From a virus, in the UHGV virus genome UHGV-0168042: a stretch of DNA of 64,000 nucleotides; one strand, given 5' to 3'. The notes below the pieces were generated by a model. It ran no database searches. It was given only the letters and a program-made list of their open reading frames with translations, and was not told where the DNA came from. The position numbers and the translations under genes were made by a program. Below, piece after piece: positions 12,779 to 55,181 of this stretch; within the stretch, counting starts at the first letter, position 1, and the number at the start of each line of letters is the position of its first letter.

Positions 12779-12912
12779 GGTTAAGCCCTAAATTCGGGCG
12801 CGGCGTGAAGGTTCTTTTGACGGGCTAACAATACCTACTTTGTGATTTAGTCAATAGGTTTAGTAAAATAAAATATATTAACACGCATGTTGTTATGTGA
12901 TTTAATTTTAGT

Positions 12913-32974: not shown

Positions 32975-33033
32975 CGTGCGGATAATCCGATTATTTGGCA
33001 GTTAAATCCCCGGCGTCGCCGGGGATGCAGCAT

Positions 33034-33975
33034 TTAACTAACAATCCAGTCCATAGCAATAACATCCTCTGGAGCTAAATCAATAGCATGGATTTTCCCG
33101 TCACGGATGGTGCGCCAGTGCTTTCGTGATCCACCTTCGGGCCACACCCATATACCTTCAGGCCAGGAAGAACGACGACACACTGTTGCGTATCCAGTCC
33201 TGATCTTCTCTCTGACGGTATGTAGTGACAGATTATCCTTTGGGCTTTCAGGCACAGGATGGTGGATTGCCTGAAACATCCCCATCTTTGGATGATACCA
33301 GCGTTTATTGCGTGGTTCTGCCTCCGACATCACCTGCTTAAAGGCTTTCCGGAAGGGGGCCAGGGCCACAATGGAGCGTCGCGCAAGCAAACCATCTGGA
33401 GTTAAAAACTCATGCGTATCGGTGGGAATCCGGAAAGCGTTAACCAGGTTGCGACATTTGGCTTCAGTCAGGCCACATTTCGCCGCCAGCTGGCGGTAGC
33501 CAATGTAGCCTTCCGGAATATTGCCTTTCTTTATTTGCTCGAGTGTTTCAGCGACCATCGATACTTGTGCTGATACCTCGGCTACCTGGGCATTTACGGC
33601 GTTGATCCGGCGTTCATGCTCAAGATGCATTTGCGCCATTTCAGCCAGGATTTCGGCTTTTGATTTTAACTGTACCCGGGCATTCTCCAGTTCGCGCCAG
33701 CGGTCCACCAGCCGGGCGGTGAATTCCGGAGAGAGCTGCGCGACGACAATGATGCTGTCTCGTTTTCCTTGTTCGCCTTCAAATATGTAAGCCTTGGAAA
33801 ATCGACGAGGGCCAACTGATTGTTTATTTTCAATTTCCACAGATTGTGGAAATTGGATCACACTCTTTTTAGCCAGTGTTTCGATAGTTCTCTTCACACT
33901 ATCTTGGCGACTTCCTACCAGTTCCGCGATCTCAATGCTGGTCATTGTCGCTTTTTGAGAGATGGACAGATTCAT
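33034..33975 (-). CDS. Rha/Ant-family phage antirepressor
   Basis: N-terminal Rha/KilAC-type domain (MTSIEIAELVGSRQDSVKRTIETL). Confidence 0.7.
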   Translation of the reverse strand: MNLSISQKATMTSIEIAELVGSRQDSVKRTIETLAKKSVIQFPQSVEIENKQSVGPRRFSKAYIFEGEQGKRDSIIVVAQLSPEFTARLVDRWRELENARVQLKSKAEILAEMAQMHLEHERRINAVNAQVAEVSAQVSMVAETLEQIKKGNIPEGYIGYRQLAAKCGLTEAKCRNLVNAFRIPTDTHEFLTPDGLLARRSIVALAPFRKAFKQVMSEAEPRNKRWYHPKMGMFQAIHHPVPESPKDNLSLHTVREKIRTGYATVCRRSSWPEGIWVWPEGGSRKHWRTIRDGKIHAIDLAPEDVIAMDWIVS

Positions 33976-34190
33976 CAGTGCACCTCCACGCAGTTCATTG
34001 GCAGATTCCAGTAATTGAGGATCTCCATCGCATCAAGAGTGAAGCGTGCGGCAAAAATGCAGGGTTCTTCAGGAAGGTATGAACGAGCTTCTGCTTCGGT
34101 TGCAGCCATGACGCAGATATACAGGTGTTTTTGGCAGGAATAGAAACGCCAGATAAATTCAGAATGAGTTGGGGTAGGGATAGTAGCCAT
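33975..34190 (-). CDS. Small protein overlapping the antirepressor start (Icd-position gene)
   Basis: 71-aa ORF whose stop overlaps the ant ATG, as for icd-ant in P1 immI; positional inference only. Confidence 0.35.
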   Translation of the reverse strand: MATIPTPTHSEFIWRFYSCQKHLYICVMAATEAEARSYLPEEPCIFAARFTLDAMEILNYWNLPMNCVEVH

Positions 34191-34373
34191 ATTGGCAGCC
34201 TCCTTTTGCTAATTTAAGGAGCTACCGCGTGAGGTTCCAATCTCAATGGCGGTAGCACTGACTGGGTTGGAACTACCGGCGCAAAAGGGAACCGGCCTGC
34301 CTTTCGGCAGCCCAGCCAGCACTACCATTGATCTCTGAGCTAAACGCTACGTATGGCTGTGCGATGGCATGAC

Positions 34374-34470
34374 ACAAGAAAAGACGCTTTCGGCGTCTGT
34401 GTCGCCTTTTGCATTATCCGGGGTTCCAATCCCGGCACCCGTTTTTCTAAGGTGCCGTAGAAATATACCC
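34374..34470 (-). ncRNA. Candidate c4-like antisense regulatory RNA upstream of icd/ant
   Basis: Minus-strand hairpins ggcacc...ggtgcc and ccggg-attggaac-cccgg, then terminator gacgccgaaagcgtc+ttttctt ending near 34374; 5' end not defined. Confidence 0.3.
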
Positions 34471-34502
34471 CACGATAATGCCAGGGCGCAACAGTCAGTA
34501 TT

Positions 34503-34670
34503 TTATGCTTTGGCGGATTTCTTCCGGGCTTGCTTGCAGGCGTAGGCCATTGCTTTAGCTTTCACTTCATCCAGCTTCCCGGTAATCACTTCTTTTCCGA
34601 GAGTGACAAACCAGTCATAGCAACCGCCAGTAATGTTCTTGATTTGAAAGTTGAGGTAGCGAACAGTCAT
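34503..34670 (-). CDS. Candidate small protein (55 aa)
   Basis: GGGGGAG RBS then ATG at 34670; MTVRYLNFQIKNITGGCYDWFVTLGKEVITGKLDEVKAKAMAYACKQARKKSAKA; below track cut-off. Confidence 0.3.
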   Translation of the reverse strand: MTVRYLNFQIKNITGGCYDWFVTLGKEVITGKLDEVKAKAMAYACKQARKKSAKA

Positions 34671-35001
34671 TTTGACTCCCCCAGCGCGAATAAAGAATGC
34701 AGATTATCGCGTGAGTGGTGGACGACGAGTGATGGGAAAAGACTGTAGTTGTTCATAGTGTAGTGACTCCTTGCTTTCGGAGCCGCCATCGACTGTTCCA
34801 CGGTCTGGTGGCGGCGCAATAAAGGCTGGAACACCGTGAGTCAACGGGGGCTTTTCAGCCACCTATATTGCACCGCCATAGGTATGGCGGGGGCAATAAT
34901 ACGAAAAACTAAACAGTTTGTCTCAAAAAGTTGACCGGTGTGCCAATCGGTAGTGAATGTACATCGGAGAAATTTACAATTCAACTTAAAATGTTAGAAA
35001 A

Positions 35002-35580
35002 CTAATTTATTAATTCAATCGCCATCTGATACAACGCCATTTCATCGGCATTGTGCCGTATGAAATCTGCTTTTCCGCCTATTTTTCCATCAGCATGAAC
35101 AGGGACCAGCCAGGGATATTGTTCTCGGACCTCGGCTGGCGCTGCGTACTGGTGGTGCCATTTACACAAAGGGAGGACATATTTATGTGCGTTCTCTGCC
35201 GTTCTCCCGAAGATATGGTGCAGGGATACCACTGGGCTATGTTGCCCGTGAATATGGCAGGCAATGCAGGGGAGAGTACCGATAGCGGTCTGTATCCGGC
35301 GTTCATCGGCTGTGAGTGATCTGCCCTTCAGGCCGCGTGACGTGCGTGTTTTTTTGGGCGGAGCGGATACAGCTTTATCTTTTCTCCGCTGTTCATATTG
35401 CTTTGCTTTTTCAATTTTCTTTTGCCGATATTCAGGCGATGCGGCTTTTTCTCTCGCTCGCTGCTGCTGGCGTTGAGCTTGTTGAAGGCGCTTTGCCCTT
35501 TGTTCCTCTCGCCAGGCTGGGTCAGCCAATTTTTGCATGGCTTTTTGTCTCTGTTTCTCCCAATAGCTCTGTTTCTGCAT
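35002..35580 (-). CDS. ref: Ref-like HNH endonuclease (recombination enhancement function)
   Basis: HNH core LPCIACHIHG...VSLHHIFGRTA...LPLCKWHHQYAAPAEVREQYPWLVPVHADG matches P1 Ref as recalled; basic N-terminal region. Confidence 0.75.
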   Translation of the reverse strand: MQKQSYWEKQRQKAMQKLADPAWREEQRAKRLQQAQRQQQRAREKAASPEYRQKKIEKAKQYEQRRKDKAVSAPPKKTRTSRGLKGRSLTADERRIQTAIGTLPCIACHIHGQHSPVVSLHHIFGRTAENAHKYVLPLCKWHHQYAAPAEVREQYPWLVPVHADGKIGGKADFIRHNADEMALYQMAIELIN

Positions 35581-35619: not shown

Positions 35620-35663
35620 GATCAAAACAGTTAGATATTCAAAATTGATTTTCTAACACAAAA
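35620..35663. promoter_or_regulatory. Operator-like palindrome (GTTAGATATTC ... TTTTCTAACACAAAA) upstream of ref and of the divergent 35698 operon
   Basis: Motif family member in the divergent intergenic region. Confidence 0.4.
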
Positions 35664-54143: not shown

Positions 54144-55181
54144 ATGAGTAAGAAGTCGATCGAGAAAGAGTACAAACGGTTCCTGCAAACCGCTGAACGG
54201 TGGAAAGAGCTGGTGGTCGCAAACTCTGTTTTCCATGATACCAGTTATGCTGGCGAGGAATTCCGCCATGTTGCATTAACGCATGACCAAAACATATTAG
54301 AAGAAGCTGAAAAATGTCTTGCTGAATGGAAAGCCTTCGTTGACATGTGTCGCGATGCCGACGGCAAAGCGTCGAACATTGTTGAGTCTGTATATTCTCC
54401 GATCCCATTCATCATTGAGGACACCAATCAAAGCACGCATGTTGTTGTGCAAAGCGCTACAACAACACGTACATTTACACGTGAGCAATTGCTCAAAAAA
54501 TACGACAAAATCATAAAGAAAAGCCTGAAAAATAGGGTTTTTTCTCAAATCGTAGGTGCTCTTGAAGAAGAACAGCGCTTCTTTGAAGCTGAGCCTGAAG
54601 GCGAGATCTACCGGGCGCGTAAAGAGGCATATACAGATGTTGTGCTGACAACAAACATCGAAGGCAGCAATGCCCTTTCTCGCTTTAGAGTTGGCGCACA
54701 TGGCGCATTGGTTTTCGCAAGACTACCGAAGACAACGATCCCCGTTGTCAATAATGTTGGTGAACGCCGGAGCATTACAATTTATTCTGGCGTCGAATCG
54801 GTACCTTGCAGCCTTCTCGGCGATTTTAACTTATATCGTGTTCGTGACCTGGAAAAACACCAGCCAAGCTACGTTGCGAAGTCGTACATCTTAAGGAACA
54901 TCGATATTCGCAACGAAAACCTTAAGCAGAAATCCGCTAAGATGCTGGAGGATGCCGATCCGGCCATTCGCCATATCATTGAACGTAAGATTCGTACATC
55001 GCGTGAAGCAATGGCAAGGCTGGATAAAATGGATCTGGAATTGTTAGACGTAATGATGGCCTCTGGAGACGACCTGACCGGCATCAAACTGAATGAAGCG
55101 CGTAAAAAATACGGCAAAGCAATCGAAGAACGTTACGGATACACATTCCCCCAAACGCAGCACGCCGCAAAGCTCTGGTAA
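54144..55181 (+). CDS. Hypothetical protein (345 aa); occupies the position held by the c1 repressor in P1
   Basis: Lies between the lox-like site and pacB with an operator-like motif in its leader; no sequence-level support for repressor function. Confidence 0.45.
   Translation: MSKKSIEKEYKRFLQTAERWKELVVANSVFHDTSYAGEEFRHVALTHDQNILEEAEKCLAEWKAFVDMCRDADGKASNIVESVYSPIPFIIEDTNQSTHVVVQSATTTRTFTREQLLKKYDKIIKKSLKNRVFSQIVGALEEEQRFFEAEPEGEIYRARKEAYTDVVLTTNIEGSNALSRFRVGAHGALVFARLPKTTIPVVNNVGERRSITIYSGVESVPCSLLGDFNLYRVRDLEKHQPSYVAKSYILRNIDIRNENLKQKSAKMLEDADPAIRHIIERKIRTSREAMARLDKMDLELLDVMMASGDDLTGIKLNEARKKYGKAIEERYGYTFPQTQHAAKLW

Follow-up and report, generated by a model that had tools for sequence, protein, structure and literature searches.

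Positions 33034 to 35002 of the virus genome UHGV-0168042, analysed here as one stretch of 64,000 nucleotides (the window), very probably carry the immI-type immunity operon of a D6-like phage-plasmid, working in the manner of immI of phage P1. This reading is built on matches to RNA families, on exact and co-varying complementarity between a C4-type antisense RNA and its target sites, on the location of one of these sites (b2) on a Shine-Dalgarno (SD) sequence, on the homology of the gene that follows to icd of P1, and on gene order. The 1,969-base segment is 95.9% identical to Escherichia phage D6 (MF356679, 74022-75990). Its best plasmid identity, 98.3%, occurs in E. coli plasmids of ~90 kb, and it is matched in 435 of 5,426 complete E. 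coli genomes (~8%), with 568 of the 586 matching places lying on plasmids. The high identity to D6 and the location on E. coli plasmids indicate that the window belongs to a phage-plasmid of the D6 type, which is related to P1. The elements of the immI region, namely ant, icd, C4, an isrK-type leader and an open reading frame (ORF) of 55 amino acids (aa), are all encoded on the minus strand.

The original prediction, a reading of the raw sequence, had suggested antisense-RNA control of antirepressor synthesis, to be checked by a scan with the Rfam C4 covariance model and a search for complementarity to the icd/ant leader. The ORF-free stretch with tRNA-like hairpins to which it pointed was located at 34191..34502 and holds two Rfam matches above the gathering scores (45 bits for C4, RF01695; 50 bits for isrK, RF01394). 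These are a C4 RNA (76.7 bits, E 3e-13) and, upstream of it, an isrK-type RNA (34455..34377; 59.4 bits, E 3.6e-10, model positions 1-77). The pairing of sites was judged by exact-complement searches. The linker segment a' of C4 is complementary to a2 over 7 nt and the loop segment b' to b2 over 8 nt, b2 lies on the SD sequence of icd, and copies of both sites (a1 and b1) recur in the isrK-type RNA. When the 54-nt icd leader (34244..34191) or the isrK-type RNA was shuffled, both C4-complementary sites in the right order appeared in 0 of 200,000 shuffles. The suggested control is thus supported by the C4 match, the target pair, compensatory changes (see below) and a c4-icd-ant order like that of P1.

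The minus-strand intrinsic terminator (gacgccgaaagcgtc and a T run) that had been listed with the tRNA-like hairpins is present, but it forms the 3' end of the isrK-type RNA and not of C4. The hairpins and terminator upstream of C4 are a separate leader RNA of the isrK/c4-a1b1 type, with the decoy sites a1 and b1. The c4-a1b1 motif, defined by Weinberg et al. 2010 (PMC2864571), belongs to the same Rfam clan as C4 (CL00128). Its model (RF03163, gathering score 46.7 bits) reaches only 22.4 bits here, at 34468..34415, and passes on the P1 leader (51 bits) and on another D6-like module (52.2 bits). In one locus (L084) the isrK and c4-a1b1 matches overlap, suggesting that the isrK-type RNA is the a1/b1-bearing leader on a slightly different scaffold. 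In addition, the closing stem of C4 has a 3' strand (GCUACCGC) that can also pair with a downstream segment (GCGGUAGC), which would put a2 in a hairpin loop; the arms of this alternative hairpin (34256..34249 and 34228..34221) change together in other classes of the locus. A hairpin sequestering the SD sequence (CUCCU/AGGAG), seen in the minimum free energy (MFE) fold, is not conserved in other classes and was dropped.

The two genes downstream of C4 overlap as the original prediction had described for icd and ant. The 71-aa protein matches the NCBIfam Icd-like family NF033153 (49.4 bits, cut-off 25), is 63% identical to Icd of P1 (E 6e-28), and carries the RefSeq label 'host cell division inhibitor Icd-like'. 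Its stop codon shares one base with the start of the next gene (UGAUG), and the SD sequence of that gene (GGAGG) sits within the 3' end of icd. The following 313-aa ORF, which had been called a Rha/Ant antirepressor, is indeed found at 33975..33034. It matches PHROG 63, 'anti-repressor Ant' (E 3e-60), scores 28.1 bits against Pfam Rha (PF09669) over profile positions 1-91, a borderline miss of the 29.9 cut-off, and its homologue is named 'Rha family' in RefSeq. BLASTP found no similarity of this protein to Ant1 (E 0.32) or KilA (E 0.83) of P1, a PDB sequence search with it gave no match, and PADLOC gave none on the four ORFs of the locus. Judged by its sequence, the antirepressor belongs to a different, Rha-like Ant family and is not a homologue of Ant1/Ant2 of P1. 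The C-terminal ~75 residues of Ant have their match in another PHROG (7385), pointing to a domain fusion that goes unrecognised by the annotation pipeline. In a 98%-identical plasmid, the ant homologue NL410_RS01135 (window 33265-33975) is flagged by RefSeq as a pseudogene 'missing C-terminus'; the 313-aa ORF here is intact. The GC-rich hairpin CCCCGGCGACGCCGGGG directly past the ant stop codon possibly marks the end of the operon; it was left unscored by the terminator scan because it lacks a T run.

To compare the locus with its relatives, Icd was used as the anchor to fetch 80 viral loci, from which 26 distinct leaders and that of P1 were aligned. Over the C4 stems together with a'/a2 and b'/b2, 98.3% of the cells in the 26 distinct loci are paired and 20 pairs have changed on both sides, which none of 500 shuffles equalled; sliding the partner by 1-3 columns lowers the pairing to 27-50%. 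The long closing stem of C4 and the two hairpins that it encloses (helices 1-3) are 98-99.5% paired, and double changes are seen in 13 of the 27 pairs within the molecule. For the leader sites (a1/a' and b1/b'), 96.2% are paired and 8 pairs are doubly changed; the paired fraction or the covariation score was reached in 0 of 500 shuffles, the count of 8 doubly changed pairs in 6 of 500. The loci fall into at least seven a/b combinations, wherein a and b reassort independently, and within each class a1, a' and a2 change together, as do b1, b' and b2. Besides UUGGAAC, the a site occurs as UUGAGAC, UUGGUCU, UUGGCCU and UUGGCGU, and as UUGACAG in P1; the b site occurs as GCAAAAGG, GUCAAAGG, GUCUAAGG and ACUCAAGG, and as GUUAGUGA in P1, while CCUUUGAC is the b' of another, natural class. 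In every class b2 is located on the SD sequence of icd. The a/b letters predict hetero-immunity at immI among D6-like or P1-like phage-plasmids. One locus (IMG/VR UViG 2778261639_000014, 1231-1503) has UUGAGAC as a1, yet GUUCCAA/UUGGAAC as a'/a2. Its a1 is of another class than its a'/a2, suggesting natural recombination that left the leader decoy alone mismatched; the locus could serve as a natural test of the role of a1.

Table 1. Features of the immI region and of the unit upstream of it, in the direction of transcription (window coordinates).
Feature	Position	Strand	Basis and remarks
17-bp operator-like site TGTTAGAAAACTAATTT	34992..35008		Candidate operator of C1 type at the stop codon of ref; the -35 of the upstream promoter follows after 7 nt
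Candidate upstream promoter	34956..34984	-	-35 TTGAAT 34984..34979, 17-nt spacer, -10 TACATT 34961..34956; predicted from sequence
Leader hairpin GAUUGGCACACCGGUC + U-rich tract	34925..34948	-	Terminator-like; terminator scan, weak
C4-2 RNA	34804..34883	-	RF01695, 40.2 bits (below cut-off 45), full model aligned
C4-2 b' UGACUC, loop	34843..34838	-	Complement of b2-2
C4-2 a' UGUUCCA, linker	34833..34827	-	Complement of a2-2
C4-2 targets	34764..34800	-	a2-2 UGGAACA 34800..34794, b2-2 GAGUCA 34769..34764; exact complementarity
29-aa ORF (D6 orf86, MNNYSLFPSLVV...)	34667..34756	-	AUG 34756; at the place of an Icd-like gene in some relatives
55-aa ORF (D6 orf85)	34503..34670	-	PHROG 7786; distal gene of the C4-2 unit; conserved in D6-like plasmids
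Candidate promoter of isrK-type RNA	34462..34491	-	-35 TTGCGC 34491..34486, 18-nt spacer, -10 TATATT 34467..34462; predicted
isrK-type/c4-a1b1-type leader RNA	34372..34455	-	RF01394; coordinates include the U run
a1 UUGGAAC, hairpin loop of isrK-type RNA	34429..34423	-	Complement of a'
b1 GCAAAAGG, isrK-type RNA	34412..34405	-	Complement of b'
Intrinsic terminator gacgccgaaagcgtc + T run	34398..34382	-	Terminator scan
C4 antisense RNA	34245..34332	-	RF01695, full model 1-87 aligned
b' CCUUUUGC, loop of C4 hairpin 2	34288..34281	-	Exact complement of b1/b2
a' GUUCCAA, single-stranded C4 linker	34273..34267	-	Exact complement of a1/a2
C4 target region in icd leader	34199..34240	-	Exact complementarity and co-variation
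a2 UUGGAAC, downstream of C4	34240..34234	-	7/7 pairs with a'
b2 GCAAAAGG	34209..34202	-	8/8 pairs with b'; overlaps icd SD AAGGAGG 34205..34199 (icd AUG at 34190)
icd-like gene, 71 aa	33975..34190	-	NCBIfam NF033153 match, similarity to P1 Icd
Antirepressor-like gene ant, 313 aa	33034..33975	-	PHROG 63 match; Rha-like N-terminus
GC-rich hairpin CCCCGGCGACGCCGGGG	33008..33024	-	Possible operon end; read from sequence, weak

In P1, C4 is processed from the operon transcript by RNase P to a stable RNA of ~77 nt that represses ant in trans, and icd and ant are coupled through Rho-dependent transcriptional polarity. The processing of c4, its action in trans and the dependence of ant on icd in P1 and P7 were reportedly worked out by Citron and Schuster in 1990 and 1992, by Biere and colleagues in 1992, by Heinrich and colleagues in 1994 and by Hartmann and colleagues in 1995. 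Repression of Ant synthesis by c4 RNA in P1 is also described in PMC8546580. By analogy, a promoter just upstream of 34455 would have the isrK-type leader transcribed; some transcripts would end at the leader terminator, and others would read through into C4, icd and ant. The tRNA-like C4 (~80-88 nt) would be excised from the read-through transcript and accumulate, and its b' loop and a' linker would pair in trans with b2 and a2 of the icd leader. Because b2 overlaps the SD sequence, icd would then stay untranslated, and because expression of ant is proposed to depend on translation of icd, the antirepressor would be off and the lysogen immune. The a1 and b1 sites would compete for C4, either in cis or on a short RNA released by termination, and would thereby set the threshold of the switch, while the a/b letters of an element would set its immunity specificity. 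The processing of C4, its action in trans, the coupling of ant to icd, and the inactivation of a C1-type repressor by Ant are presumed here from the work on P1, P7 and Gifsy-1.

Several points weigh against this reading. The processing of C4 and repression by it are argued here from sequence and analogy. The promoter assigned to the isrK-type RNA is a weak match to the consensus (3 of 6 positions in the -35) and went unreported by the promoter scan. Since Ant is unrelated to Ant1/Ant2 of P1, its target is likewise a presumed one. Co-variation does not distinguish pairing in cis from pairing in trans, and in the MFE fold of the 276-nt read-through RNA (-111.1 kcal/mol, z -5.07) a1-b1 pair with b'-a' in cis, so that the amount of free C4 would depend on processing. 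The centroid structure of the same RNA retains the C4 fold.

The cis-paired fold resembles 'structure A' of Gifsy-1, where IsrK supplied in trans raised translation of anrP more than 100-fold (PMC4825925). It is conceivable, though we doubt it, that activation of this kind dominates here. The terminated isrK-like RNA would then act as an anti-antisense in trans, pairing through a1/b1 with the C4 segment of a silent read-through mRNA, freeing the ribosome-binding site (RBS) and turning on icd-ant upon induction. In favour of this, the leader scores above the isrK cut-off and has a terminator and a promoter-like site of its own, and a1/b1 show perfect complementarity to a'/b', together with co-variation. 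However, in Gifsy-1 the activated orf45 follows isrK and extends up to the start of the antirepressor gene, whereas here, as in P1, a separate icd with an RBS covered by a2/b2 follows C4, and an ORF running through C4 is not conserved across classes. Such activation is compatible with P1-like repression, from which it differs in the limiting RNA and in the sign of the output; the trans activation in Gifsy-1 together with the cis-paired fold suggests that the IsrK logic may run alongside the P1 mechanism.

Control as in P4 would place the effect on transcription: the C4-like RNA would bind a1/b1 and a2/b2 of a transcript still being made, in the way that CI RNA pairs with seqA and seqC, and would cause premature termination with no block of translation. 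The order of the three sites (target-RNA-target) is identical, an intrinsic terminator directly follows a1/b1, IsrK has been called a structural homologue of P4 seqA (PMC4825925), and C4 and c4-a1b1 share a clan. This is nevertheless unlikely, because b2 always lies on the icd RBS, a position needed for a translational block and not for termination. In addition, the terminator scan gave no terminator-like site between a2/b2 and icd. That the RNA features are chance likenesses or decayed remnants, with ant on or off regardless of any RNA, is hardly credible and is already contradicted by the two Rfam E-values, the shuffles and the 20 pairs with compensatory changes. P1-like repression by C4 is the reading with the best support.

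The 55-aa ORF at 34503-34670, which the original prediction had left unexplained, proved to be conserved in D6-like plasmids and can be placed in a second, upstream C4-like module. The RNA of this module (C4-2) has an E-value of 9.6e-6 in a local search and 3.4e-4 over the whole window in a permissive Rfam scan, and its MFE fold shows the C4 architecture. Its b2-2 site overlaps the SD sequence (AAGGAG, 34772..34767) of a 29-aa ORF whose stop overlaps the start of the 55-aa ORF (AUGA), and both target sites in order were found in 2 of 200,000 shuffles. The target sites are invariant across all relatives, and C4-2 itself is 88-91% identical, and taken with its targets 80-91%, in relatives with an adjacent leader that is only 54-62% identical. 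The Rfam score of C4-2 in the relatives is 36.2-42.7 bits, below the threshold everywhere, and no covariation was obtained because the sequences barely vary. From its sequence C4-2 is probably a second riboregulator, which falls short of proof; the unit explains why the 55-aa ORF lies where it does. The leader hairpin upstream of C4-2 looks by eye like a degenerate counterpart of the a1 hairpin of isrK, a likeness that we regard as weak.

The 55-aa protein was found only in D6-like plasmids in a search of 5.8 billion proteins, with no domains; its N-terminal 31 residues are nearly invariant, and a tblastn search against phages matched D6 alone. The AlphaFold2 (AF2) model, a confident one, has four strands and a helix (predicted local distance difference test score 82.5), and its comparison with PDB folds gave nothing significant (best E 2.4). 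The 29-aa ORF has in-frame indels in divergent relatives. In some E. coli and Salmonella plasmids (P0001, P0005), the 29-aa and 55-aa ORFs are fused into one ORF of 83-85 aa, which implies either tolerance of a frameshift or that the small upstream ORF need not be made as a product of its own.

In two relatives (L088, NZ_CP091837.1, 1380-2060; and L090), C4-2 precedes a 61-aa Icd-like ORF, behind which lies the 55-aa homologue. In another (L089, NZ_CP034790.1, 1380-1960), ref, C4-2, the small ORF and the 55-aa ORF are present and the isrK-C4-icd-ant part is absent. These arrangements indicate that the C4-2 unit and the isrK-C4-icd-ant unit are separable cassettes. The GUUCCAG of C4-2 can pair with UUGGAAC through one G-U pair, and the b segments of the two C4 RNAs are wholly different. 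Sharing most of a and differing in b, the two RNAs could form a two-stage or cross-talking switch, and the free reassortment of a and b in relatives would give an immunity code that is combinatorial and far exceeds the classical P1/P7 pair in size. With somewhat less than even confidence, we propose that D6-like immI consists of two tandem C4-type riboregulators transcribed in one direction, an operator-proximal C4-2/29-aa/55-aa unit and the isrK-C4-icd-ant unit, which could act as such a switch with a combinatorial a/b code. If so, the 55-aa protein would be a new RNA-gated immunity or anti-immunity factor. A further complete module, outside the window, is carried by sister plasmids and was observed in NZ_CP116996.1 (47975-49270), with the 17-mer operator described below, a promoter, a P1-like c4-a1b1 leader, a C4 of 71.9 bits, icd and a Rha-family gene. 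It has a third specificity (a UUAGCAG, b ACGAAUG), which indicates that D6-like elements carry up to three C4-type RNAs.

The isrK-type RNA is predicted to start near 34455. The position and both hexamers of its candidate promoter are conserved in D6-like and P1-like loci, and it aligns with the P1 promoter P1c4/P51b. The hexamers of the candidate upstream promoter, which the consensus scan did not find, are retained in relatives with a diverged spacer. Beside this promoter, at the end of ref (35002), the operator-like motif noted earlier at 34991 corresponds to a 17-mer at 34992-35008. The pattern TGTTAGAAAAYYAATTT, allowing at most 3 mismatches, occurs 12 times in the window versus 0.88 expected, and 0 of 100 shuffles reach 12. 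The copies start at 12905, 23529/23542, 34992, 35642, 40883/40896, 52706, 54026, 54116, 58549 and 63282; two pairs overlap and are inverted, and the inverted partner of the site at 34992 lies at 35642-35658, upstream of ref. The site at 34992..35008 is 71-88% conserved in divergent relatives, and a sister plasmid has the 17-mer ahead of the promoter of a further C4-icd module. The C1 operator consensus of P1 (ATTGCTCTAATAAATTT) has 0 matches in the window at up to 3 mismatches. P1 has 22 dispersed asymmetric C1 operators (PMC8546580); the 17-mer resembles these mono- and bivalent sites and differs from them in sequence. The set of 17-mers would define the repressor regulon of D6-like phages. 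A 345-aa ORF (54144-55181, plus strand) is weakly similar to C1 of the P1 type (tblastn, 20.6% identity, E 1e-5) and has no Pfam match; it starts 12 nt past one copy of the 17-mer and ~100 nt past another, and is on this basis a candidate autoregulated c1 gene. Elsewhere in the window, three tRNA genes are present on the minus strand at 59999-60074, 61912-61987 and 61990-62066 (Met-CAT, Thr-TGT and Arg-TCT).

The D6 record labels orf82 'putative anti-repressor' and orf83 'inhibition of cell division, similar to P1 icd', followed by three hypothetical ORFs and ref, and the GenBank entry has no RNA gene annotated across the region. D6 orf84 ('hypothetical protein'; window 34246-34545, plus strand) runs antisense across both the C4 and isrK-type RNA genes and is most likely a spurious call. 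A 39-aa ORF wholly inside the C4 gene (34209-34328, minus strand) matches Pfam PF10554 'Phage_ASH' (33 bits, cut-off 26) and is called 'ash family protein' in RefSeq. As a conserved coding feature it was rejected, since only 14 codons remain in P1 and L084; elsewhere it extends beyond the aligned stretch, and in two classes it lies in a different frame relative to icd. The ash family or label probably arose by translating an RNA gene that is conserved, and several PHROG 'transcriptional regulator' families also include the ash-ORF segment. The reading of the raw sequence thus recovered a non-coding immunity switch that these records omit, giving D6 orf84 and the RefSeq 'ash family protein' instead.

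This kind of system is well known, and the present instance is essentially described: a D6-like plasmid has already been reported with an ImmI region (c4, icd and antirepressor homologues) and a second c4-icd region (PMC6799933). A module of this further sort is the one located in the sister plasmid NZ_CP116996.1 (47975-49160). New here are the exact identity and class of the a/b sites, the assignment of the leader to the isrK type, a specificity code that reassorts, a candidate operator of 17 bp and the sub-threshold tandem C4-like unit. The tandem unit and the a/b code extend a well-understood system in a small way and do not constitute a new kind of system.

In P4, the processed tRNA-like small RNA likewise lies between two target copies (seqA-CI RNA (seqB)-seqC). 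There it causes premature transcription termination of replication genes, no icd or ant is known, and the targets are not known to lie on an RBS. The locus shares with immI of P1 and P7 (NC_005856) the order of promoter, a1/b1 leader, C4, a2, b2 over the icd RBS, icd and an overlapping antirepressor gene, and with P1 the 7-nt a and 8-nt b sites, the terminator-like hairpin of the leader and a repressor operator upstream. The annotated sites of P1 are a1 UUGACAG, b1 GUUAGUGC, c4, a2 UUGACAG, b2 GUUAGUGA, icd and ant. The a/b letters therefore differ (UUGGAAC/GCAAAAGG here, UUGACAG/GUUAGUGA in P1), and the specificity should differ with them. Unlike that of P1, the leader fits isrK better than c4-a1b1 (59.4 versus 22.4 bits); icd and ant overlap by 1 nt here and by 4 in P1 (AUGA), the antirepressor is a Rha-like protein unrelated to Ant1/Ant2, a different 17-mer stands in place of the C1 operator consensus, and a second C4-like unit lies upstream. 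With isrK-orf45/STnc1160-anrP of Gifsy-1 (Hershko-Shalev et al. 2016, PMC4825925), the locus shares an isrK-type RNA with its own promoter and leaky terminator, then a complementary structured segment, and then an antirepressor-like gene under translational coupling. It differs in having an Icd gene of its own, whose RBS is covered by C4, between the RNA and ant, and in lacking conservation of the ORF that crosses the C4 segment; for isrK, Hfq binding and activation of the antirepressor in trans come from experiments in Gifsy-1 only (PMC4825925). Stx-converting phages, such as the Stx2 phage F039, in whose GenBank record (LC710660) isrK and C4 are already annotated, and phiP27 likewise have isrK ahead of C4, with all three sets of sites complementary as here and with other a/b letters. 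In these phages (F039, 2021-2910; phiP27, 2002-2607), C4 is directly followed by a Rha-like regulator ORF (~216 aa) with no separate icd. This ORF begins with the first residues of Icd (MATIP/MATVP), and cassettes appear to have recombined at a junction inside the opening codons of the regulated ORF.

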